From NCBI GenBank assembly GCA_963818965.1, contig CAWFUG010000009.1:416001-480000 (forward strand): 64,000 bases of DNA. Reading direction: 5' to 3'. Positions within the stretch are counted from its first letter, which is position 1, and every line of letters starts with the position of its first letter. The notes beneath the pieces were generated by a model. It made no database searches, was not told the DNA's origin, and saw only the letters and a list, made by a program, of their open reading frames with translations. This stretch comes from an uncultured Verrucomicrobiae bacterium. GTDB lineage: Bacteria > Chlamydiota > Chlamydiia > Chlamydiales > Rhabdochlamydiaceae. Shown in pieces: positions 7,946-22,230 of the stretch. The translations under genes were made by a program, and so were the position numbers.

Positions 7946-8455
7946 ATGAGAAAGTTAATTTTGTTTTTGTTGGGGATTTGCTCTGTCTGGACGGCTCCTA
8001 TTTTGGCTGCAAGTGCTCCTCAAGCGCCTAAGGCACTAGAGCGCACATTTGCGATGATCAAGCCAGAGGCGGTTCAGAGCAACAAGAGTGGCCATATCAT
8101 CGCGCGGATCGAGACGGAAGGGCTCTCTGTTGTGGCGATAAAAATGGTTTCCCTTTCCAAAGCAGAAGCGGGTAAATTTTACGACGTCCATAAAGGGCGC
8201 CCCTTTTACCAAGAGCTCGTCGACTACATCTCCTCAGGTCCCGTCATCGTTATGGTCATCGAAGGAGAAAATGCCGTAGAGGGGTATCGCAAACTGATGG
8301 GATCTACCGATCCTAGAAAAGCGCCTCCGGGCACTTTGCGCGGCGACTTTGGAACCAACATCCAAAAAAATGCCGTCCATGGCTCGGATTCGGGAGAAAA
8401 CGCAGATAAAGAAGTCGCTTTTTTCTTTGCTGAAGAACAGATTTATAAGCGTTAA
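7946..8455 (+). CDS. ndk: Nucleoside diphosphate kinase with N-terminal signal-peptide-like extension
   Basis: ERTFAMIKPEAV, GTLRGDFG, NAVHGSDS (catalytic His); about 30 extra N-terminal residues MRKLILFLLGICSVWTAPILAA. Confidence 0.92.
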   Translation: MRKLILFLLGICSVWTAPILAASAPQAPKALERTFAMIKPEAVQSNKSGHIIARIETEGLSVVAIKMVSLSKAEAGKFYDVHKGRPFYQELVDYISSGPVIVMVIEGENAVEGYRKLMGSTDPRKAPPGTLRGDFGTNIQKNAVHGSDSGENADKEVAFFFAEEQIYKR

Positions 8456-9176: not shown

Positions 9177-9211
9177 GATATACCCAACTTTTGAGTCTAC
9201 TTGGGTATATC
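9177..9211. repeat. Repeat family B (TATACCCAAGTGGACTCAAAAGT-type) copy
   Basis: GATATACCCAACTTTTGAGTCTACTTGGGTATATC; related copies at about 7872, 10915, 15630, 15810, 18904 and 60021. Confidence 0.8.
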
Positions 9212-9385: not shown

Positions 9386-9862
9386 ATGTTTTTTATGAGT
9401 CCATTTTTATTCACTTATCAGATTTATCCAGTTCTTAATGCCTCTCGTAGTTCTTCAGTTCCTAATACCCCTAACCAGAACGAATTGAGCGAGGCTAAGT
9501 ATATCCAGCTCTATGCGAGGATCCCTAGCTCGACACTGACAAGTAGCTCTGAGATGACATGCAGCTCTGTTTGGAGCGAGCCCTTTGATGAAATCAGACC
9601 TTTTGAGAAGGATGCTATCAGTGCAGAGAATGAGGTTCATGGAAATTCAGAAGCCGCTTTTGAGGATAGTGGAGAAGGAGCTAGCAGCCTACCTGAAGGA
9701 AAAGAAAGGGGTTCCACGAAAGGGTACATTGCCAACGATTCAATGGAGAGTTCTGAGTGTCGTCGACTGACGATTTCAGAGGAAGTGGCTCTGATGAAGG
9801 AGACTCAATTGTTAAAGCATACGTTGTATATCTGGAATAAGACTTTAACTAACTCGAAATGA
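9386..9862 (+). CDS. Ser/Glu-rich hypothetical protein, candidate secreted effector (paralog 1)
   Basis: Low-complexity ORF after an AT-rich upstream region; shares a 41-aa block with 10142..10807. Confidence 0.6.
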   Translation: MFFMSPFLFTYQIYPVLNASRSSSVPNTPNQNELSEAKYIQLYARIPSSTLTSSSEMTCSSVWSEPFDEIRPFEKDAISAENEVHGNSEAAFEDSGEGASSLPEGKERGSTKGYIANDSMESSECRRLTISEEVALMKETQLLKHTLYIWNKTLTNSK

Positions 9863-10141: not shown

Positions 10142-10807
10142 TTGTTTATGTCTTTGTGTTTAGGTTTAGGGCATAGTGCGGGAGAGCTGAATTCTGTTCC
10201 ATTACCCGGGCTAGCTCAATCGCGTTGGATGAAGTTCTGTGAAGAAAACCATATATTTAGTGGTTTTGAAGTAGGGAATAAATCGACAGAGGAAAAATCT
10301 GCTAGAGTGTATGCAAGCACAGATAAATCGACATCTACTAGTAGCTCTGGATTTGTGATTATCGAGAGACCCCAATTGTGTGATTCTCATTACGAGGCCC
10401 CTTGTCCATCCAGGGAATCGAGTCTTTCAAAGGAATTGAGCGAGGCTAAATATATCCAACTCTATGCGAGGATCCCTAGCTCGACACTGGCAAGTAGCTC
10501 TGAGATGACATGCAGTTCTGTCTGGAGCGAGCCCTTTGATGAAATCAGACCTTTTCAGACGATCAGTACAGAGAGTGAAGTTTCTTTAGGATATATTCCA
10601 GATGATGCGGGGGAAGAACCTGAGGATGTAAAACAAGAAGCTTCTGAAGTAGGTTATTCTCCCACTGATGCGGGGGAGATTTCTAGGTATTCTCCACCCA
10701 CCCTCGCAGAAGAATATGATCTCCGAATTCAGGCGCAATTTTTACAGCATGCATCGCCTTTGTGGGGTCAGCCCTTAAATACCTGGCAAATCCCCATCGC
10801 ATTCTAG
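10142..10807 (+). CDS. Ser/Glu-rich hypothetical protein, candidate secreted effector (paralog 2)
   Basis: Shares ELSEAKYIQLYARIPSSTL.SSSEMTCSSVWSEPFDEIRPF with the upstream ORF. The true start may be ATG 10148. Confidence 0.6.
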   Translation: MFMSLCLGLGHSAGELNSVPLPGLAQSRWMKFCEENHIFSGFEVGNKSTEEKSARVYASTDKSTSTSSSGFVIIERPQLCDSHYEAPCPSRESSLSKELSEAKYIQLYARIPSSTLASSSEMTCSSVWSEPFDEIRPFQTISTESEVSLGYIPDDAGEEPEDVKQEASEVGYSPTDAGEISRYSPPTLAEEYDLRIQAQFLQHASPLWGQPLNTWQIPIAF

Positions 10808-10983
10808 CTCTGAAGGCAATGGCGCCACCAGCACAGAGGTCACGGCTTCGATTCATTGATGTTGTTTTTTGCGCATTCAGGGGAGATTATCTCTCCTGAA
10901 TACCTATCTGTTTTACTTTTGAGTCTACTTGGGTATATACCCCTTCCACCTCAATCGTACCCAAGAAAACCGAATGAAAAGTT

Positions 10984-11057
10984 CTCAAAATTCGAATCAA
11001 AGGTCGGGGTTAATATTAAATTCAATATTGACCCCGACCTTTGGTTCGAATTTTGAG
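10984..11057. repeat. 34-bp-stem inverted repeat between convergent genes
   Basis: CTCAAAATTCGAATCAAAGGTCGGGGTTAATATT / AATATTGACCCCGACCTTTGGTTCGAATTTTGAG, 2 mismatches. Confidence 0.85.
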
Positions 11058-11061
11058 GCTT

Positions 11062-12066
11062 TTAATCGGTTTGCTTGTGGTTACGATTGAGGTGGAAGGG
11101 GTATATATCCCGTATTCGCTCTGTAACAGCCTCTTCGAGATAAGGGAGGAGCTCAGGGTATTCTTTTTGAAGCCATCTTTTCAGTTCCAATGTCCCATAG
11201 AAGAGCTCCTGTCTATAGACGAAGGGCTCGCGCATTCTCTCATTTTCCAGGAAGGAGCCCGAATCGATTTCGACTGCTTGGGTGCCGATGAATCCCAAAT
11301 TGCGATCGACGATATCCCGATCGGCAAATCCCTTCGTGCAGCGCACGAGGATCAATTGGAGCAGGGAGTCGATGCACTCCTTTGCAGCTGCGTGGTTTTC
11401 CTCCTGTTTCAAGGCGGCGAGGTGTGTTTCGATCGGGACTGCCTTTTTTTGGAGGAAAAACTTGGCAGTATCGAGATCGATCGTATGAGCGATACCACAG
11501 CTATCGTAGAGGTTAAGGCTCCGCTGGAGGTGCTCTGTCGGGTTAAGGTGAAGATAGAGAAGCCCTGCTTCCTCTTTTAGCTGAGTATAGGCCAGTTTGA
11601 GGCTCGTGAAGGTCCGCAGCAGCCGGTATTCGCGCATGCCAAACAGGCGCTTGAGCGCTTTATCGAAAAAAGAGTGACTCTCCCCCTTCGCGTAGGAGAG
11701 ATCGGAAAGAGTCCCCGCATAGCTACTGTAATCTTCTAGAAAGATCCCCCGATGGATGTAGACAGGTCGTAACAGGTCCAACTTGAAGAATTTGATGACC
11801 GTCGATTCATCTGCGCTCAAAAAGGCGAAGCATTCGCTGCCAGCTCCCAAAAAGGTGTAGCTTTGCGAGAGGAGCGCATCGACTGCTTTTTCCGTTTCTG
11901 CAGAAAGAGGCGGGGTTTGCCAGTCAGAGTGGAAAGGAAGGTCTTGCGCGCGGATCCTCTCGATACAAAAGCCGCGGGTTTGCCGTTCGATGAGTTGCTG
12001 TAACCCTAAAAACAACCCGATAGCGCAACAGAATTTAAAAAAAGTTTTCACAAAACGTTGAATCAT
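11062..12066 (-). CDS. Membrane-anchored kinase-like protein, paralog 5 of 5
   Basis: N-terminal hydrophobic anchor; LGAGSECFAF, VIKFF, KGFADRDIVDRN, IDSG. Start ATG 12066. Confidence 0.7.
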   Translation of the reverse strand: MIQRFVKTFFKFCCAIGLFLGLQQLIERQTRGFCIERIRAQDLPFHSDWQTPPLSAETEKAVDALLSQSYTFLGAGSECFAFLSADESTVIKFFKLDLLRPVYIHRGIFLEDYSSYAGTLSDLSYAKGESHSFFDKALKRLFGMREYRLLRTFTSLKLAYTQLKEEAGLLYLHLNPTEHLQRSLNLYDSCGIAHTIDLDTAKFFLQKKAVPIETHLAALKQEENHAAAKECIDSLLQLILVRCTKGFADRDIVDRNLGFIGTQAVEIDSGSFLENERMREPFVYRQELFYGTLELKRWLQKEYPELLPYLEEAVTERIRDIYPFHLNRNHKQTD

Positions 12067-12958
12067 CCTCACATGATAATCGCTCCTGCAATTCTCGATC
12101 AAGAGGGGGGATGAGAGAGGGCGCATTTTTTGTCAGCCAAAATTTTAAGCTGGCAAAGACGCGTTCGCTCTCTTTTTGTCGGTACTGTTGGGAGCAGACT
12201 GCCCCGTCCTTCGAGAGGGGGCCGATGTCGATTTGGATTGCTTTCCCCTCGAGGAAGCCATAATTGGTGCGGATCAGGGGGTCGTTGTCTGCAATGCCGT
12301 GCCCGTACTTCCAAAAGAAGAGATCGAGCAGGGAAGACAGCGCCTGGCTCGCCTCAGATGTCTTCCCCTCATCGATCATTTTTTTGAGCGCCGGATAGGC
12401 GAGCTCGACCTTTTTTTGGATGACGAACCCGATCCCATTCAGATCGATCGGATGCGCGATATTGAGCCGATCGATGAGGAAGAGGGGAGCGGGGAGTTCT
12501 GCGCCTTTTTGCAGATGTACGTAGAGCAGCGCTGTCTGCTCCTGCATCTCCTCAAAAGCGATCGCGTAGCTCGTGAATGTCCGCTGGAGCTTCTGCTCGA
12601 AGAAGTTCCGTTTTGCCTCTGCCCATGTGTTTAAAAAGGGGAAGTGGGAAAAGAATCTAAAGAGGGAAATTTTAGAGGGATAGGCGTTATTGAAGATCTT
12701 GAGGACATATTCTCCATCTTCAGAGAGAAACGCAAAGCTCTGTTTCCCCCGCCCGAAGTAGCGGAATTTTTGCTGCAGAAGCGAAAGTGGCGCGTGAGGT
12801 GTTTGAGGTAGGAGAGCCTCTGAGGTTTTTTTGGGGGGTAAGTTATCTCTGATTTTCCACAGCGCAAACCCTTTGGTCTCGTGGTGGCAAAAGCGGGCCG
12901 TTCCATAACAGAGGAGCGGGATGAGGAGGAGGGTAAGTATTCTAGACTTTAGCATCAT
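12035..12958 (-). CDS. Membrane-anchored kinase-like protein, paralog 4 of 5
   Basis: FGRGKQSFAF, VLKIF, HGIADNDPLIRTN, IDIG. Confidence 0.7.
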   Translation of the reverse strand: MMLKSRILTLLLIPLLCYGTARFCHHETKGFALWKIRDNLPPKKTSEALLPQTPHAPLSLLQQKFRYFGRGKQSFAFLSEDGEYVLKIFNNAYPSKISLFRFFSHFPFLNTWAEAKRNFFEQKLQRTFTSYAIAFEEMQEQTALLYVHLQKGAELPAPLFLIDRLNIAHPIDLNGIGFVIQKKVELAYPALKKMIDEGKTSEASQALSSLLDLFFWKYGHGIADNDPLIRTNYGFLEGKAIQIDIGPLSKDGAVCSQQYRQKESERVFASLKFWLTKNAPSLIPPLDRELQERLSCEDDSTFCENFF

Positions 12959-12980
12959 TTGACAAGTTGTTTTCTCTACA

Positions 12981-13066
12981 AACCTTTTTTCTCTCTGTGG
13001 TTTCCCCTCTCTGTGGTTAAAAAAATTTCACCACAGAGAGGGGAAACCACAGAGAGAAAAAAGGTT
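12981..13066. repeat. Repeat family A, copy 2 (perfect 37-bp stem, 12-nt loop)
   Basis: 12981-13017 is the exact reverse complement of 13030-13066; it contains the intact IS110 target CACCACAGAGAGGGGAAACC. Confidence 0.95.
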
Positions 13067-13070
13067 CTAT

Positions 13071-13934
13071 TCATGCATAAATTTTCATCTCTTCATCGAG
13101 AAGATCTACGAGTTCAGGGTGACACTCTTCTAACCAGTGGCGGAAGCGTTTCATGATCAGGCGGAGATCTTCTCGGTAGACGTCGGGGTTTTTGCGCTGA
13201 TCGTCCCTCACAAAACGCCCCACGTCGATGAAGATCGGCGCTTCTTCGATAAATCCCAAATTGCGATGGATCTTCGGATCCTCGTCGAAAATCCCCTTTT
13301 CACAGCGGGAGACGATCCCTTTTAAGATGGCGGCAAATCCTGCGCGGAGCTTAGTGAGATTTTGTTCTTCTACGAGGGTGTCGATGTAATCATAAGCCAA
13401 GATCGCTCTTTTTTGCAGGACGAATTCGACATCATTAAGGGGGATCTCATGGGAGATGCCGAGTTTATCGATGATATGGGCCGTGAGATCGAGGGGCACA
13501 TCTTTGTTGAGGTGGATGTAGAGCAGACCCGATTCCTCTTTTAGCTCTTCGTAGGCGAGTTTGTAGCTCGTGAAATCGCGGCGCATTTTAAGGAGTGATT
13601 TCTGCAATTTCTTTTCAGAGAGATAGGGGTAAAGGTAAGAGTAGGGCTTGCGGAAGCGGTGTTTGAAGAATTTAATCACGTAGCGTTCATCATGTGAGGC
13701 AAAGGCGAAGGCTTGACCCCCACAGGCTAAATAGTGAAAGGGTTGGGAGAGGATCTCTCGGAGCTGTTCTCTTTGTGCGGTTTCGATCGGCTCTATTTCC
13801 CATTCAGGAGAAGGAGCGAATTCAGAATGGATTCTAGCGACGGAAAACCCATCGGTCTGAGCGTCGCAAAAGGTTTTAGCGAGGTAGAAGATCAGCATTA
13901 CAGCGCTTAAAAGTGTTAAAAATCTGAATTTCAT
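13071..13934 (-). CDS. Membrane-anchored kinase-like protein, paralog 3 of 5
   Basis: LACGGQAFAF, VIKFF, KGIFDEDPKIHRN, IDVG. Confidence 0.7.
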   Translation of the reverse strand: MKFRFLTLLSAVMLIFYLAKTFCDAQTDGFSVARIHSEFAPSPEWEIEPIETAQREQLREILSQPFHYLACGGQAFAFASHDERYVIKFFKHRFRKPYSYLYPYLSEKKLQKSLLKMRRDFTSYKLAYEELKEESGLLYIHLNKDVPLDLTAHIIDKLGISHEIPLNDVEFVLQKRAILAYDYIDTLVEEQNLTKLRAGFAAILKGIVSRCEKGIFDEDPKIHRNLGFIEEAPIFIDVGRFVRDDQRKNPDVYREDLRLIMKRFRHWLEECHPELVDLLDEEMKIYA

Positions 13935-14716
13935 AGGAAGCTGGCCACAGTTTGATCAAAATGTTCGAGGAGCTCTTCGTGATGGGTAGCGAGCCAGTTG
14001 CGAAAGCGGGGAGTGATCCGCGCGATCTCTTTCTTGTAATTCTCCTGGTTTTTGATCTCTTCTGAATAGACGACTCGCCCGATGTCGAAGAGGATTGGTT
14101 CCCCTGCGATAAAGCCGCAGTTCGACTGGAAGTTGGCATCCCGATTTCGGAATCCTTTTTTGAAGAGATCGACATGGAGCAAGAGGAGGCGTTCGATTCC
14201 TTCTTTGGCGAGATCTTCTCGACCTTGGCTTACCCACGCATCGATTTGATCATAAGTGAGAATGGCTCTTTTTTGCAGCAAAAAGAGATGCTCCTCTAAA
14301 TCGAGGTCAAGGGGTATTCCTTCCGGTCCGAACAGGCGCGCGGTTCGGGGCAGGGGGGTGCGTTTTAGATGGGCGTAGAGAACCCCTGTTTCTTGGGCAA
14401 AGTGTTCAGAGCAGAGCTGAAAGGCGTAAAGGACCTTGTTTTTTTGAAGTGCTGCCTTCGCTTTATTTTTCGAGAATTTGGGTTTTAAGAATTTCAAAAC
14501 AAACTGCCCATCTGCGCTGAAAAAGACATGGGATTGTCCTCCTCTGCCGAAGTAGTGATACTCTTGCGAGAGGGCCTCTTCGACAATTGCCTTTTCTCGT
14601 TCAGAGAGCTGGCCAGAAGGGGCTGTGGCGGAGATTTTTTCCACTGAAAACGAGCGGCTCTCTTGTGTCGTACAAGCGAAAAGAAGCGTCAAGCTCATCA
14701 AGAGAACGTACCACAT
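13931..14716 (-). CDS. Kinase-like putative lipoprotein, paralog 2 of 5
   Basis: Lipobox-like LLFAC; FGRGGQSHVF, VLKFL, KGFRNRDANFQSN, FDIG. Confidence 0.7.
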   Translation of the reverse strand: MWYVLLMSLTLLFACTTQESRSFSVEKISATAPSGQLSEREKAIVEEALSQEYHYFGRGGQSHVFFSADGQFVLKFLKPKFSKNKAKAALQKNKVLYAFQLCSEHFAQETGVLYAHLKRTPLPRTARLFGPEGIPLDLDLEEHLFLLQKRAILTYDQIDAWVSQGREDLAKEGIERLLLLHVDLFKKGFRNRDANFQSNCGFIAGEPILFDIGRVVYSEEIKNQENYKKEIARITPRFRNWLATHHEELLEHFDQTVASFL

Positions 14717-15610
14717 CTAAATTTCCGATTCTAATCGATGGATTTCATGCATCAGATGCTCAGAGAGGGGAGGACAGCTTTGATCGAGCCACTGGCGAAA
14801 ATGGTCTGTAGTCCGGATGATCTCATCCCGATAATTCTCTTCCGTCCCTTTTTCTTCACGGGGGCGGAACCTGCCGATATCGATTTGCAGCGGCTTTTGA
14901 CCAATGAAGCCGAAATTTGTATTGAGATCGGGATCTTTGTCGAAGATTCCCCTTTCACAGCGCACAGCGAGCAGGCGGACCAATGCAGAAATCGCTTCTT
15001 TCGCTTCGGAGATCTCTCCTTTTTGTACCAGCGCATCGATCGCAGGGTAGACCAACTGCGCCCGTTTTTGTACCAAAAATTCCATGTCATCGAGACAGAT
15101 GCGATGAGCGATATTCAGTTTATCGTAGAGGATGAGTTCTTTGTCGAGGTGCTTTGTCTTATTCAGATGCAGATAGAGCAATCCCGTCTCATCGCGCAAT
15201 TGATCATAGGCGATGACGTAACTCTGGAAGTCCTTGCGGAGCTCTTCTCTCTTCTGTAGCCATTTTCTCAATTGAAAGGCCTGTAAAAAAGGGGGGAACT
15301 GCAGCTGAGAAATCCAAAAAGGAGGGAGCAAATGGTTGAGGCGGAAAAATTTGATGACCGACTCTCCATCTTCTGAAACAAAGACGAAAGACTGCGCCCC
15401 TTTGGCCAAATAAAAATAGGGCTGATCGAGTGTTTTTAAGACGGCAGAGCACTCGTTTTCAGGAAGTAGTTCCACTTCCCAATCGGGATTAAACGGCAGG
15501 GAAGATTGGATTTTATGAGGGGAAAACCCTTCCGTTCTCTTGTAGCAAAATCGCTTGACAAGAGGCAAAGACCCTACGACGAGAAGAATGAAAAGGATGC
15601 GTCTTAACAT
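14717..15610 (-). CDS. Membrane-anchored kinase-like protein, paralog 1 of 5
   Basis: LAKGAQSFVF, VIKFF, RGIFDKDPDLNTN, IDIG. Confidence 0.7.
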   Translation of the reverse strand: MLRRILFILLVVGSLPLVKRFCYKRTEGFSPHKIQSSLPFNPDWEVELLPENECSAVLKTLDQPYFYLAKGAQSFVFVSEDGESVIKFFRLNHLLPPFWISQLQFPPFLQAFQLRKWLQKREELRKDFQSYVIAYDQLRDETGLLYLHLNKTKHLDKELILYDKLNIAHRICLDDMEFLVQKRAQLVYPAIDALVQKGEISEAKEAISALVRLLAVRCERGIFDKDPDLNTNFGFIGQKPLQIDIGRFRPREEKGTEENYRDEIIRTTDHFRQWLDQSCPPLSEHLMHEIHRLESEI

Positions 15611-15937
15611 GTGGCTACAATGTAGCCTCTATACCCAATTTAGCTCAAGAACCTATCCCTTAACTGGACTCAAAAGTCGGTGGTCCTCATCGCTAGAAAA
15701 ATAGAATCTTAAGCAAAAAATAGTAAGGTGGACCCCAATGTCTAGACAAAAAAATCAGATCATTTTGCGCGTCTTGACGCTTGCTCCAAAAACCTTACCA
15801 AAAGCTCCTTATACCCAAGTGGACTCACGAGTTGCCAGATCTTGAGCTTGGTCTGGCACAACTTTTGTTTATAGAAATTAACGAAATGTCTATAGTAGAC
15901 GCTCGCATTGATTTTTTTAACAAAAAACAGGAGTTTT

Positions 15938-17695
15938 ATGGCTTCCTCTTTAGGTGGTGTACCCCAACGCAACTCAATTCAGCCCATTCCAGAACATGCC
16001 GCCTCAACGAAGCTAGCTCTCCCCAGCGAGCTATGGAAGCTCATTTGGCACTATTTGCCTGTGCAAGCGCGATTGAGCTGGGGATCTACAGCAAAAGCGA
16101 TGCGCGGCGATCCTGAGATTTGGGAGCTCTTTTTAACGCGCTGTTATCCCGGCATTTATGCAAGACACCACGCGCAGGTTCCTGAATGGCAACTTTCTTC
16201 TCTTTTTTTTCAAATCAAGAAAGAGATCGCAGCCATCGGTCCTCATATCAGCCAGGGAAAATGCACCATTCGCACTTTGGATTGGATCGAGGGGAACCCG
16301 ATTGCCAAATACGTCTTTGAGGGGCAGATCTATACCTGCTTTTGTAATGGAGCAATCAGGGTGTGGGATCTGATCCAGAAAAAAGAGCTCTATACGCTAT
16401 GTGAGGGGGATGAGACTGTGCATTGGACTCGATCAGATGTGGCTCTTACAGCTTCTGCGCGGTTCCTCATCCTTTCTCAAAAACAGGTAGTAGCGGAGCG
16501 AAAGACGCTGATGATTTGGGATCTCGAGGAGCGGGAAAAAAGCCCTTCCCTTCTCATTGACTGTGCTGCGTACCAATTGCTCCATGATCAACTCTATTAT
16601 GTCACTGCACAGAATCTAATCCAGGTGATCGATTTAAAGACACTAGAGGAGAAGGTCTGTTTTGCTTTTCCAAGCGAAAAATCACAGCTTGGCTATAATT
16701 TTCAGTTTTTTGTGGGTCCGGGACAGGTTCTTTACTTATTCATGGGCGGAGAGATTATAGAATGGGATTTGAAAGTAGGGAAGGAGCGCAGTCGCTTTCC
16801 TCACAGGCTTCCCGCGGAAGCGCGGATTGAATGGTATGAAGGGGGGCAGTTTTTGCGGTTGGTCGCAGATGGTAAATATCTTTGCCTATACCCCGATTCC
16901 TTGGAGAGAAACGACTTGATTTATTTCTGCGATCTCCGCCGCGAATCAAAACAATGGCTTTGTACTGAGTGCAATGTCCCTGCGGCAGATTGTGAGATGG
17001 CTGAGGGGGGATTCTTCTATAGAAGTCGAAACAGGTTGGTGAACTTCTACTCTTTTGAGGGCAAAAAGACATATTCTTGGCCTCTTGGAACAGATGTGGA
17101 GATCGACTATTTTTGGATCGAACCGGAACCCCGTTCGATTCAATGTCAATGGGATGGGTATGAACGGTTTTGCCTGCCTTATTCTCAATCATCCATTAGC
17201 GTGAGAGACTTTAGCTTCTCTTGTCAGGCGTCCTATGCAGAAGAAGTGCTCGATCAGAGTCTAGAAGTTGTAGAGTCGATGCAACATGCAGAGAATGAAG
17301 AAGCGTGGAAAGATCTTTTTCAAAAGCTACACCTCGATTTTCAAGCCGAGTGGGAGAGTGCTGCTTATCTAGACCCCCTAACGATTAAAAGAATGCAAAC
17401 AGACATTTACTTCCAGCAAATGCTCCATATGCTTCACAGGGAAGATTTACAGATCGTAAGAGAGCTTTTGTACAAATGGATAGAGATCGATCCGGGGAAT
17501 CAGGAGAGACTGAGGTGTTGTATCAATGCTACCATAAGAAGGGGTTGTCCTTTGCAAGAGGAAGAAAATAGCATCGATGCCTTTTTCCACCTAAACCCGG
17601 GCCGACCCAATCTCGTAAAGACGCCGATCGGATATCAGGCGTATATGATTCAGAAGTTGCAGATCCTAAAAACTAATACCAATCCTCGAAAATAA
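15938..17695 (+). CDS. F-box-like protein with WD40/beta-propeller-like region (candidate effector)
   Basis: LPSELWKLIWHYLPVQARLSWGSTAK F-box pattern; repeated IRVWDL, LMIWDL, IEWDL; start ATG 15938 after AGGAG. Confidence 0.75.
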   Translation: MASSLGGVPQRNSIQPIPEHAASTKLALPSELWKLIWHYLPVQARLSWGSTAKAMRGDPEIWELFLTRCYPGIYARHHAQVPEWQLSSLFFQIKKEIAAIGPHISQGKCTIRTLDWIEGNPIAKYVFEGQIYTCFCNGAIRVWDLIQKKELYTLCEGDETVHWTRSDVALTASARFLILSQKQVVAERKTLMIWDLEEREKSPSLLIDCAAYQLLHDQLYYVTAQNLIQVIDLKTLEEKVCFAFPSEKSQLGYNFQFFVGPGQVLYLFMGGEIIEWDLKVGKERSRFPHRLPAEARIEWYEGGQFLRLVADGKYLCLYPDSLERNDLIYFCDLRRESKQWLCTECNVPAADCEMAEGGFFYRSRNRLVNFYSFEGKKTYSWPLGTDVEIDYFWIEPEPRSIQCQWDGYERFCLPYSQSSISVRDFSFSCQASYAEEVLDQSLEVVESMQHAENEEAWKDLFQKLHLDFQAEWESAAYLDPLTIKRMQTDIYFQQMLHMLHREDLQIVRELLYKWIEIDPGNQERLRCCINATIRRGCPLQEEENSIDAFFHLNPGRPNLVKTPIGYQAYMIQKLQILKTNTNPRK

Positions 17696-18050: not shown

Positions 18051-18884
18051 TTATTTCAGCGTGATGGTGCGCTCTACGTCGTTGAAGAGGCCGGGGACGC
18101 GCTTATTTTTGGGGTCGAGTAGCTCCAAACGGATCTTGTGCATTCCCTTTTTGAGCCCGTAGATGTAGTGGGGCTGCCAAGAGGTCAACTGCCTTTGTAT
18201 ATTACCATCGATAGTCAGCCGTACCTTGTACCCATCCTTGGAGAGGGTGCAATGGGTCAGATAGAAGTCGAGCAGCACGGGCTTGGGTTTCTTTTCATTA
18301 TAGGGGATGTCCCCTTGAGGAAAATTGTAGGTGAGATAGGGAGCTGAGAGATCGACTTTCGGGTTGTCTTTCTTCTCTTGGAAATAAAAGATGCTGGCCG
18401 TGAAGGCATTTGCCGCTTTGATGCTCTCGTGGTAGGAGCGGCAGGGGTAGGCGCGGATGACGTGCATTCCCGGTTGTAGCTTGAAGGGGATTTCAAAATT
18501 AGCGGTTTGATCGAAGTAGTTTTCGATGTCATCTAGGGCGTCGAGAAAGGCCTCGCTGACGGAGAAGTAGGGCTCATTGTCGATCATGATATGGACCGAT
18601 TGCCCTTCTGGGTCATTCCAAACCTCATTCCTTCTGGGATTATCTTCTGTGTCTACCCCTAATGCGATCCCATCGACCCGGATCTGTCCTTTGATGGGGG
18701 CCGATTTTTTGAGCTCGCCGTATTTGGGAAAGAGGATTTTCGTTTCCACCGCGTTCGGATCGGGAGAGGGATCGACAGGAACGACGCGTATGCTGTGCGG
18801 ATTAGCCTGTTGTTCTTTCAGTTCTGCGGCAAAGTTTGAAGAAAAGAGCAGTGAGAAGACGGTAGTAAGTAGGCTTAGGCGCAT
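18051..18884 (-). CDS. Exported conserved hypothetical protein
   Basis: Signal peptide MRLSLLTTVFSLLFSSNFAA (start 18884, AGGAG upstream); GQSVHIMIDNEPY...PVLLDFYL motifs. The longer ORF-track start lies inside a repeat. Confidence 0.75.
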   Translation of the reverse strand: MRLSLLTTVFSLLFSSNFAAELKEQQANPHSIRVVPVDPSPDPNAVETKILFPKYGELKKSAPIKGQIRVDGIALGVDTEDNPRRNEVWNDPEGQSVHIMIDNEPYFSVSEAFLDALDDIENYFDQTANFEIPFKLQPGMHVIRAYPCRSYHESIKAANAFTASIFYFQEKKDNPKVDLSAPYLTYNFPQGDIPYNEKKPKPVLLDFYLTHCTLSKDGYKVRLTIDGNIQRQLTSWQPHYIYGLKKGMHKIRLELLDPKNKRVPGLFNDVERTITLK

Positions 18885-20085: not shown

Positions 20086-22230
20086 ATGCGACGGCGTAAA
20101 GGTCAAGAGGGGCTCTCTGTTGTGCAAGCAGTTGATCATCTGTCTTCTATGGCAGAGATCGATACGTATGCTCCTTTAAATGAGCCGCCTCTCTCCAAAA
20201 AGCGAATACAAACCCTAACGCAGGATGATCCTGAGTATTTTCTCTATCATCGAGACCAGATAAAAGAGACCTTCAGGACGATCCTCAACTATCTCAAAGA
20301 GTTGCATCAAAAAGATAAGGGAAAGCTGCGCGAAGACGAGGTGCAGCGAGGGCTCAAGGCCGTCATTCTCTTAGCCACAGAGGCAGCGGAGAAGCTCGAT
20401 AAGTACGCGGAAGTGGAACAACAGGGAAAGATTACAGAGCTCAAAGAGTACCAGGATCTGATGAAGTTCTACCAGAGCAAGGTATTCCACCGCTTCCAAG
20501 CCCCTCAAGAGGGCACAGAACACTGGCCAGAACAATGGGGATCTCTTGCAGTAGAAAACGCTCAAAAGGGGAGCTTAAAAGGATTAGAGTCTGTGCGCTC
20601 TGATCGAGAATACGAGCTCTTTTACATCAAAAAAGAGGATGGAACGCCCTATTTTAACCGCTCTTTGTTGCGCCATCTTCAGCTTGTCGGGAAATTCGAT
20701 ACGCTGCTCATCGATCCCAAATCGGATGATCTCTTTGGACGCTTGAAAATCATGCAAGATAGAGACTCTCATCACGCCGCCCAAAAAATCTTAAGTGCTG
20801 TATGGGATCAAATCGAAGAGTATTTTAAAGAGGCGATGAAACACAAAGAGATTCCCTATGTCGCAGCAGTCAACCAAGCGATCATGGCCCTCATGCTCAG
20901 TGCCAATACAGCGAATCTCTTGCAAAATACGACAGGAAAGAGCTCTTTGCGCTATTATGCTGATTTCCTCTTATACCTACGCCAAGCGCTCCACTCAGAA
21001 GAATACCGACGTTACCTAACGCACCCTCCGAAGACAGCCGAGCGTTTTTTTTCCCTCGCCTTTAAATTGACCCATCAGCTCAGCGCCCTTGTCTTCTTGC
21101 GATCAGGCTATCAAAAAGAGATGCAGCTGTTCATCCGCCAATTGATCGAAAGGGGGATGGCAGATAGCATAACAGAGAAAGAGAAGAAAAGCCCCTTGGC
21201 CTCTTGGAACATCTTACGCGATGAAGACGCCGCCTTGCGCTCTTTGTTACAAAAGTATCCCAATGGTCCTCTCATAAAGACCCTTTCCCTATTTCAAGAC
21301 GATCTTCCCATGAGCGGCTTTGATCCGATCAAATCGACGCATCTGCCTGCGCAGCTTTACACGCTGGTCAATAACGACATGCATGTGAGTTGCTTGAGAA
21401 TCCCCAGTCCTATCCTCCAAAAAGTAATCCGCAAAGCAGAGATCGCTGAAGAATTTTACGGGTTTTTAAGGAGTCTTAGCTCCAAAGGAACCCATCAACA
21501 CCATCTTCTCATCAACCTTCAGGACCGCACCTCGTGGCAGGAGCACACGCGCTGTGTCGCTCTAGAAGAGATCCCTGAAAAAGAAGATTTTTCAGCCGTA
21601 TTGAGCGTCGTGACCCTTCCCAAAAGTGGCGATTTTTACTGGCAGAGCGCCGAATATCTCGATCGCGACGATGCGAGCGAATTCATCCAACAGTTTAAGA
21701 GTCAAATTGCAAGCGGAGAGCAGTGCGGCTTTTTCTTCCCTAAAACGATCGACAAAAAGCAACTGGCTACATTTTCCACTCAAGCATTCCAAACGATCCA
21801 TACCCTCTTCTTCGGCGGAAAAAAGATGTTGACCCATCGCAACCGACTCGATTTCATCGAGATCTTCTACATCCTGTTAACTCTCAAGCTCATCGAAGAG
21901 AGCTCCCCAGATAGTATGAGCTTCACCTGTAAGGACGCCCTCGATACAGGCATCGTCCACAGCGCCGAGCTCTTCGCCTTCCTGCGGTTGCTCAATGACC
22001 CTTCCCCCTGTACCAAGGAAGAGCGCGACTTCTTCGTCTGGATGCTCTATGCCCCTGCTTTGGAGGCCCGTTTCCGGGCGATCGAGCCCAAGGCCTTGGA
22101 TCGGATGCTCGGGGCCATCAGCCTCATCCACGGCGAGCTCGAGGCCCACCGCACCGCCATTGTGGCCGGCTGCGGCCAGCTCTACAAGCGGCAGTTCTTT
22201 AAAGACTTGATTATCAAGGACTTCGTTTAG
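20086..22230 (+). CDS. Large conserved hypothetical protein (Chlamydiae-type)
   Basis: 714-aa intact ORF; DREYELFYI, LINLQDRTSWQE and SFTCKDALD segments; no function recognised. Confidence 0.75.
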   Translation: MRRRKGQEGLSVVQAVDHLSSMAEIDTYAPLNEPPLSKKRIQTLTQDDPEYFLYHRDQIKETFRTILNYLKELHQKDKGKLREDEVQRGLKAVILLATEAAEKLDKYAEVEQQGKITELKEYQDLMKFYQSKVFHRFQAPQEGTEHWPEQWGSLAVENAQKGSLKGLESVRSDREYELFYIKKEDGTPYFNRSLLRHLQLVGKFDTLLIDPKSDDLFGRLKIMQDRDSHHAAQKILSAVWDQIEEYFKEAMKHKEIPYVAAVNQAIMALMLSANTANLLQNTTGKSSLRYYADFLLYLRQALHSEEYRRYLTHPPKTAERFFSLAFKLTHQLSALVFLRSGYQKEMQLFIRQLIERGMADSITEKEKKSPLASWNILRDEDAALRSLLQKYPNGPLIKTLSLFQDDLPMSGFDPIKSTHLPAQLYTLVNNDMHVSCLRIPSPILQKVIRKAEIAEEFYGFLRSLSSKGTHQHHLLINLQDRTSWQEHTRCVALEEIPEKEDFSAVLSVVTLPKSGDFYWQSAEYLDRDDASEFIQQFKSQIASGEQCGFFFPKTIDKKQLATFSTQAFQTIHTLFFGGKKMLTHRNRLDFIEIFYILLTLKLIEESSPDSMSFTCKDALDTGIVHSAELFAFLRLLNDPSPCTKEERDFFVWMLYAPALEARFRAIEPKALDRMLGAISLIHGELEAHRTAIVAGCGQLYKRQFFKDLIIKDFV

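Follow-up and report, generated by a model that had tools for sequence, protein, structure and literature searches.

A predicted kinase-fold family with membrane anchors, encoded in ordered arrays by environmental chlamydiae

What do five adjoining, related genes without a family name do for a chlamydial bacterium? The question is raised by a 64,000-nt stretch of DNA (hereafter the window: GenBank assembly GCA_963818965.1, contig CAWFUG010000009.1, positions 416,001-480,000, forward strand) from an uncultured Verrucomicrobiae bacterium, which GTDB places in Chlamydiota; Chlamydiia; Chlamydiales; Rhabdochlamydiaceae. A preliminary description of the window proposed an operon of five paralogous, membrane-anchored or exported proteins with a cryptic kinase fold, which we call K1 to K5. 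We find that they belong to a real and very large family of predicted kinase fold, whose active sites are intact, whose members carry membrane anchors and whose ordered arrays of paralogues are ancient. The fold and the conservation are firm; for the location of the proteins and for their substrates, we weigh several explanations below.

All five genes lie on the minus strand (positions are those of the window). K1 (14717-15610; 297 aa), the first gene of the array, encodes an N-terminal anchor helix followed by a kinase-like domain with key residues G71, K87, D226, N232 and D244. The start codon of K2 (13931-14716; 261 aa; K75, D193, N199, D211) directly follows the K1 stop in the same frame, and its product begins with a lipobox-type signal (Cys15). 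K3 (13071-13934; 287 aa; K88, D219, N225, D237) overlaps K2 by 4 nt, and K4 (12035-12958; 307 aa; K87, D226, N232, D244) and K5 (K92, D251, N256, D268) complete the run. Read from its first ATG, K5 is an open reading frame (ORF) of 354 aa at 11062-12126; the family alignment begins at about 12066-12072, which corresponds to 334 aa, and from the sequence the start is likely there rather than at 12126 (11062-12066). The proteins can be aligned over their whole length, are 26-38% identical in pairs (trimmed core), and each matches a profile made from the same five at E<=1e-107, in line with the proposal of five paralogues in one operon-like run. Also as proposed, the genes overlap or abut except at a repeat, with intergenic distances of 0, -4, +112 and -32 nt from K1 to K5 and a palindrome in the 112-nt gap between K3 and K4. 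A scan for promoters and terminators returned counts no better than chance. The ordered Gly loop, V[IL]K, G[IF]x[DN]xD-x4/5-N and [IF]D[IVS]G are present in all five proteins; of two further shared motifs that had been suggested, FxxQK[KR] occurs in 5/5, while LLYxHL reads VLYAHL in K2.

An AlphaFold model of K1, built from 56 sequences, is confident (predicted local distance difference test, pLDDT, 95.2; predicted template-modelling score, pTM, 0.90). It comprises a long N-terminal helix (residues 2-26), three N-lobe strands, a long alphaC helix (107-137), a beta-hairpin insertion (158-172), the catalytic loop and a small C-lobe, in which only two helices and no activation segment follow the DxG motif. 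When the model was used in a wide structure search, the best 50 matches were all protein-kinase-like chains. Similarly, the Atlas model of a homologue, P0121, matched clusters of its own family at template-modelling (TM) scores of 0.81-0.91, AceK at 0.65-0.66 and a Pkinase cluster next at 0.59. The predicted structures thus point, with near certainty, to a bilobal kinase fold. Here the preliminary description is borne out by the K1 model and three structure searches; the opposite outcome, a structure unlike that of kinases, did not arise.

The active site is conserved to a degree that suggests function. Lys, Asp, Asn and Asp are all kept in 519/530 full-length members (98%), and given the fold match these residues would cluster in one site. 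In a set of 534 distinct sequences, weighted and enriched in K1-like proteins and their close relatives, three residues vary hardly or not at all (the Gly of the Gly loop, the Lys of beta3 and a Gln in the hinge), and the catalytic Asp, the Asn and the metal Asp reach 96%, 99% and 99%. The usual His is replaced by Asp (85%) or Asn (12%), the very substitution noted earlier for the five. Most members have a one-residue insertion in the catalytic loop; K5 has the canonical Asp-x4-Asn spacing. On this evidence, the proteins are very probably active, nucleotide-using enzymes. Eleven of the 530 miss a catalytic residue, two of them copies in the source genome (L002:10024-10947 and L004:5525-6421), which are without the catalytic Asp and look pseudokinase-like. 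The first of these precedes lipase-like and YejM/sulfatase-like genes (weak NCBIfam matches).

AceK, the isocitrate dehydrogenase kinase/phosphatase (PF06315/PF20423; PDB 3eps, 6k5l), is the nearest known kind, but the family is not AceK. It is the best known-family match in three structure searches: 3eps tops the wide search with a Z score of 10.6 (rmsd 4.3 A, 207 aligned residues, 10% identity), and AceK takes ranks 1-2 in Foldseek (E 1.5e-4). In the alignment, K1 D226, N232 and D244 pair with E. coli AceK D457, N462 and D475; both groups have Asn-Phe-Gly after the catalytic loop, Phe-Arg-x-Trp-Leu in the C-lobe and, by eye, a small residue plus Tyr at the usual alphaC Glu site. Identity is 10-14%. 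The AceK regulatory domain of ~310 residues is absent from the family, whose members (261-334 aa in the array) have ~60 residues before the Gly loop and, unlike AceK, carry an N-terminal membrane anchor and occur in multi-paralogue arrays. The position of AceK Lys461 is variable in the family, and that of Asp477 is Gly in 97%. PF06315 has no match in the source genome and matches 1/140 members, at E 0.033. When three AceK sequences were compared with the family, with 40 shuffles as control, E. coli AceK scored 28.2 against a shuffle maximum of 19.6. The kinship is weakened by the Aeromonas and Proteus AceK scores (18.4 and 18.0), which fall inside the shuffle range, by hhalign probabilities of 8-16%, and by the structural Z score, which is within 1 of that of PINK1 (10.1) and others. 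The family may be a long-missing relative of AceK.

AceK offers a guide to chemistry. According to one account, it uses D457 as base in catalysis, and ATP is held by K336 (PMC3747045); according to another, metal is bound by N462 and D475, and phosphatase activity requires D477 (PMC6591243). By analogy, Asp226 of K1 would function as catalytic base and Asn232 and Asp244 as metal ligands. With Gly in place of Asp477, on which the phosphatase of AceK depends, the proteins would be expected to behave as kinases only. The acceptor would be a protein Ser or Thr, and we lean slightly towards a protein substrate.

Other kinases resemble the family in part. The preliminary description named RIO, Kdo/WaaP and APH kinases for comparison; in the structure searches AceK is nearer, by a small margin. 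Bud32/PRPK and RIO1/RIO2 resemble it in a C-lobe that is reduced to a minimum and has no activation segment; their Z scores are 9.0-9.6 and their Foldseek E values lie between 5e-4 and 1e-3. They show no sequence match (PF01163 and related), the family is without their winged-helix or KEOPS context, and its anchor helix and hairpin insertion are its own. WaaP, WaaY, Kdo kinase and YrbL are similar in size and kinase-like in fold, and YrbL, WaaY and Kdo are the nearest named Atlas clusters by features (0.86-0.89, to be read as leads only); the family differs from these lipopolysaccharide (LPS) kinases in its N-terminal anchor and in its gene neighbourhood, which is without LPS genes. Hanks-type kinases (Pkn1/PknD, PF00069) belong to the same superfamily, but the family is without HRD, the DFG-activation loop-APE region and the large C-lobe. 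Neither the LPS kinases nor the Hanks type has a Pfam match among 140 members, and against the family profile WaaY, WaaP, YrbL and the Hanks-type proteins score in the shuffle range. Overall, 16 of 17 other kinase-fold proteins do so, and SrkA (21.6) lies just above. Fam20 and POMK are N-terminally anchored kinases working outside the cytoplasm. If the topology discussed below holds, they and CotH would be functional analogues, as anchored kinase-fold paralogues outside the cytoplasm; POMK (5gza) has a Z score of 9.0, no sequence relation to any of the three was found, and Fam20 and CotH are not among the structure matches listed, which decides nothing. CotH, a spore-coat kinase, is cited for this likeness from the available part of its source (PMC7821199).

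How large is the family? A five-member profile run on 19,096 ORFs of the source genome recovers 11 full-length copies, K1-K5 and six others, and the best non-family ORF reaches E=0.017; Hanks-type (PF00069) ORFs in this genome number seven. A database search gave 362 matches in 8,000 candidates, and among the 120 matches listed all are without Pfam domain and named only 'hypothetical'. An exhaustive profile search found 2,577 clusters (50% identity) at E<=1e-3, and because 2,403 of them reach E<=1e-10 the family is both large and sharply bounded. None of the nearest 30 Atlas clusters has a Pfam family, and three that were inspected are mostly Chlamydiota. No significant match exists in the Pfam, NCBIfam or PDB sequence libraries (the Pfam scan covered 140 members), and no published description was found in the literature searched, a scope that takes in parts of 10.64898/2026.09.18.752743 and excludes supplements and most subscription papers; the string 'Chlamyd' is absent from the available part of the text of PMC9758233. 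Within these sources, the earlier word 'undescribed' is accurate: a kinase-fold family of >2,500 clusters, in about three quarters of sampled Chlamydiota, is still nameless in Pfam, NCBIfam and PDB.

The distribution across Chlamydiae, which the preliminary description had put forward as a check, is broad and uneven. Members occur in 219/300 sampled genomes of the phylum, with 58/62 in the source's own family and 46/46, 32/32, 24/26 and 17/18 in others, at 1 to 11 copies per genome. One family of 29 small genomes has none (0/29; a retest with a 140-sequence profile found no member in 5/5 genomes), and several smaller families are likewise without match. We infer that this small-genome family is Chlamydiaceae. 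A metagenome-assembled genome (MAG) contig titled Chlamydia trachomatis (L036) has a member 48% identical to K1, at odds with the 0/29; its title is probably a mislabel. Named loci are chiefly from Chlamydiae, Rhabdochlamydiaceae and Parachlamydiales MAGs, others being titled Verrucomicrobia, Acidobacteria or uncultured bacterium, and no relative was found in the viral contigs or plasmids searched. The family would mark a sharp divide between environmental chlamydiae and a small-genome family of presumed pathogens.

We then asked how the paralogues relate to one another. In a tree of 212 proteins they group by array position and not by genome, each group with its own catalytic-loop signature, and only 3/187 proteins have their nearest neighbour within the same locus. 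Best matches to K1-K5 follow a non-decreasing order in 24/32 arrays and a strict one in 14, whereas shuffling gives 1.9 on average and 5 at most; these loci were chosen for holding a K1-like match, a choice that benefits position 1, and related genomes are not independent. Orthologues are 45-67% identical across genera, in the same order. Grouping by position implies an ancient array with members that look specialised and may differ in substrate. The predicted substrate site is encircled by many of the positions that covary most (the tip of the Gly loop, the loop from beta3 to alphaC, the catalytic loop and DxG+1). Other covarying pairs connect F21, C22, T26 and E27 of the N-terminal helix with the hairpin, suggesting that helix and hairpin form a membrane-docking unit, in which the helix, packed on the family-specific hairpin, would hold the N-lobe at the membrane. 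Six natural two-domain fusions are present among the fetched proteins (P0001, P0002, P0004, P0005, P0121, P0123). Three of them, P0001, P0002 and P0004, join a K1-type to a K2-like domain and drop the K2 signal, and therefore both domains work on the same side of the membrane. A search for longer fusions (624-2000 aa) found none, which is weak evidence, and a K1+K2 complex prediction without alignments scored 0.00, which speaks neither for nor against an association.

On which side of the membrane would the kinase domain sit? The preliminary description gave every protein a transmembrane segment, signal or lipobox; all five have a hydrophobic stretch of 14-17 residues at the N terminus, and the lipobox is confined to K2. 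Across the family, an N-terminal hydrophobic region is present in 516/527 members (mean 15 residues), with a mean net flank charge of +2.0 before and +1.1 after it; the charge before is higher in 307, equal in 122 and lower in 98 of the 527. K2 and a few other members have canonical lipoboxes in the same position. The proposed export or envelope location is therefore moderately supported, by the positive-inside bias and less by lipoboxes, which are rare. We somewhat favour an outside-facing catalytic domain, at odds of about three to two for the periplasm, and the proteins would be held by an uncleaved N-in/C-out anchor or, in K2, by a lipid anchor. Two roles for a conserved N-terminal Cys were considered and rejected: it does not covary with other Cys columns, as a disulfide would, and its motif is found only in family members (3 genome matches), which speaks against a general chlamydial sorting signal.

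We assign a rough probability of 0.35 to the explanation that we prefer, namely that the proteins are membrane-tethered, ATP-using kinases, probably periplasm-facing, that phosphorylate different envelope proteins. Chlamydiae import host ATP, which crosses the periplasm to reach TLC translocases, and the source genome encodes three full-length TLC-family nucleotide translocases; the kinases would draw on this ATP as it crosses. If they do face the periplasm, they would be among the few examples of phosphorylation driven by ATP in the envelope of a Gram-negative bacterium, and energy parasitism would have made this possible. The preferred explanation also agrees with the predicted exported Ig-like protein that is usually encoded upstream and with the lack of a conserved glycosyltransferase cluster nearby. 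A number of findings weigh against this explanation. The weak sequence link to AceK and the patchy occurrence of a second ndk and of c0 (see below) are among them. The predicted alphaC helix (107-137) is without a conserved Glu (Ser130 is conserved in 91%, and Glu141, just past the helix, in 82%), and where protein kinases have a Lys in the catalytic loop, the residue varies here (Thr 34%, Arg 27%, Lys 17%). No substrate gene co-occurs with the family. The small-genome family likewise lives on host ATP and shows no member. Finally, several features of the anchor fit the opposite topology. The hydrophobic region is short, and in K1 the charge is +4 after it and +2 before. A strict lipobox is present in 4/566 sequences (about 7 by eye, two of these in another subfamily) and in 4/16 K2-type proteins, two of them near-identical, and cysteines of the mature domain show no disulfide-like covariation.

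These last features are what would be expected if an inner-membrane anchor left the kinase domain on the cytoplasmic side, acting on membrane proteins, lipids or lipid-linked precursors. Cytoplasmic ATP would need no special account, the basic residues that follow the short hydrophobic region (mean +1.1) and the scarcity of lipoboxes (~1% of the family) and of paired cysteines would be explained, and the fold relatives AceK, Bud32, RIO and COQ8/UbiB are not periplasmic either. However, the flank charges as a whole point the other way (307 against 98), two or more subfamilies have lipobox-type signals equally far from the conserved Phe, and the K1-K2 fusions place K1 in the compartment of the lipobox-bearing clade; we regard a cytoplasmic domain as a serious rival, a little less probable than the preferred explanation. 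Outside-facing enzymes could instead be small-molecule kinases that work one after another, in a set sequence, on a glycan, lipid or LPS of the envelope, like the sugar kinases POMK and Fam20B. Conserved order and position-specific active-site signatures fit a pathway; the minimal C-lobe, the likeness to the YrbL, WaaY and Kdo clusters and the POMK match also speak for such kinases. Against them, no conserved glycosyltransferase, LPS or glycan cluster was found in 84 loci and 20 further regions: a glycosyltransferase-like ORF appears in 2/84 loci (by eye), and one Kdo-hydroxylase among 26 Pfam-scanned neighbours. Together with the shuffle-range scores of WaaY, WaaP and YrbL and a copy number that ranges from 1 to 11, hard to square with a single fixed pathway, this makes such a series unlikely.

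Less probable still is a kinase fold turned to other chemistry, such as an ATPase or AMPylation, or a hetero-oligomer in which only some subunits turn over. It would account for the missing alphaC Glu, the His-to-Asp change and the catalytic-loop insertion, and for the translational coupling, the two-domain fusions and the 11 members without a catalytic residue. With the canonical Lys/Asp/Asn/Asp order kept in 98%, we consider it improbable; single-copy genomes exist, and therefore a heteromer is not required. The least probable possibility, to which we give little credence, is that the proteins are effector kinases aimed at the host and sent to its cytoplasm or to the inclusion membrane. It agrees with the obligate intracellular lifestyle and with the effector kinases Lpg2603 and NleH among the Foldseek matches. 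Effector expansions are usually fast and lineage-specific, whereas here orthologues are well conserved, in order, across genera; in addition, each protein has a single short N-terminal anchor, and the viral contigs and plasmids searched hold no relative. In favour of an effector role, one report places a signal-peptide chlamydial Ndk2 in host compartments (PMC13318545).

A fuller form of the preferred reading is more tentative: a periplasmic phosphorylation system of up to eleven ancient, position-specialised, AceK-related tethered kinases that would use host ATP to modify envelope proteins such as the product of c0, a gene upstream of the array. If true, bacteria would have a counterpart to the kinases of the secretory pathway, one that pathogenic Chlamydiaceae lack and that is accompanied by an exported nucleoside-diphosphate kinase (Ndk) in some lineages. 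The c0 gene (18051-18884, minus strand) encodes a signal-peptide-like N terminus and predicted tandem Ig/FnIII-like domains; its structure prediction has a low TM score to any one structure and shows two such domains. It is unnamed, with 425 homologues (best 120 at 58-75% identity), and is found in 45/84 loci, most often as the gene next to the array on its 5' side, beyond which lie a phosphate transporter and a 714-aa gene; in the window, 595-aa and 102-aa genes stand between. c0 occurs in 141/300 genomes of the phylum, confined to one set of families, and its absence from three kinase-bearing families (0/32, 0/18 and 0/6, single-protein query) speaks against an obligate subunit. An ndk gene with a signal-peptide-like N terminus (7946-8455, plus strand) is convergent with the array and an optional neighbour; it is the second ndk of a genome that also has a plain one (G000:C1:274506-274922). 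The signal-like N terminus is seen in 5/6 array-adjacent ndk ORFs, the sixth being cut. A second ndk is present in 10/63 own-family genomes, too few for a required partner; apart from the source genome, the eight of these that have coordinates place it 1-9 kb from the array. In one report, the signal-peptide Ndk2 of Waddlia stands beside ndk1 and pabA and is read as host-targeted (PMC13318545); the array-adjacent genes extend signal-bearing Ndk beyond the families named there, in a different gene context.

Several further neighbours deserve mention. The 595-aa gene between c0 and K1 (15908-17695, plus strand), by eye an F-box N terminus and a beta-propeller, is without Pfam or NCBIfam match, and its slot holds variable genes in relatives. 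The unnamed 714-aa gene beside the phosphate transporter (20086-22230, plus strand) has homologues near family members in 24/84 loci, and in 5 further loci from several families; it has no NCBIfam match, and one homologue is without Pfam match. Proteins of 1,250-1,700 aa adjoin a family member in four loci (L004:6504-10517, L111:92-5203, L119:1113-5213, L122:1481-5233); they are without Pfam match, and some are AsmA/TamB-like by eye. Other family copies adjoin unrelated housekeeping genes.

The array is also interspersed with repeats, and the genome carries at least three dispersed REP- or MITE-like families. The palindrome in the K3-K4 gap (12981-13066, no strand, 41-bp arms) occurs at ~159 genomic loci by blastn, and was therefore rejected as an operon-specific element. 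A nested palindromic element (10931-11110, no strand; 27-42 genomic loci) overlaps the 3' end of K5, such that the final ~16 codons of the gene (11062-11110) are an arm of a genome-wide repeat, a correction to the preliminary description. A third family lies at 9187-9210, 10915-10938 and 15810-15832 (~52 loci by blastn). Beyond the array, two Ser-rich ORFs without Pfam match (9386-9862 and 10142-10807, both plus strand) share a 130-nt duplication that is 95% identical and has only these two occurrences in the genome.

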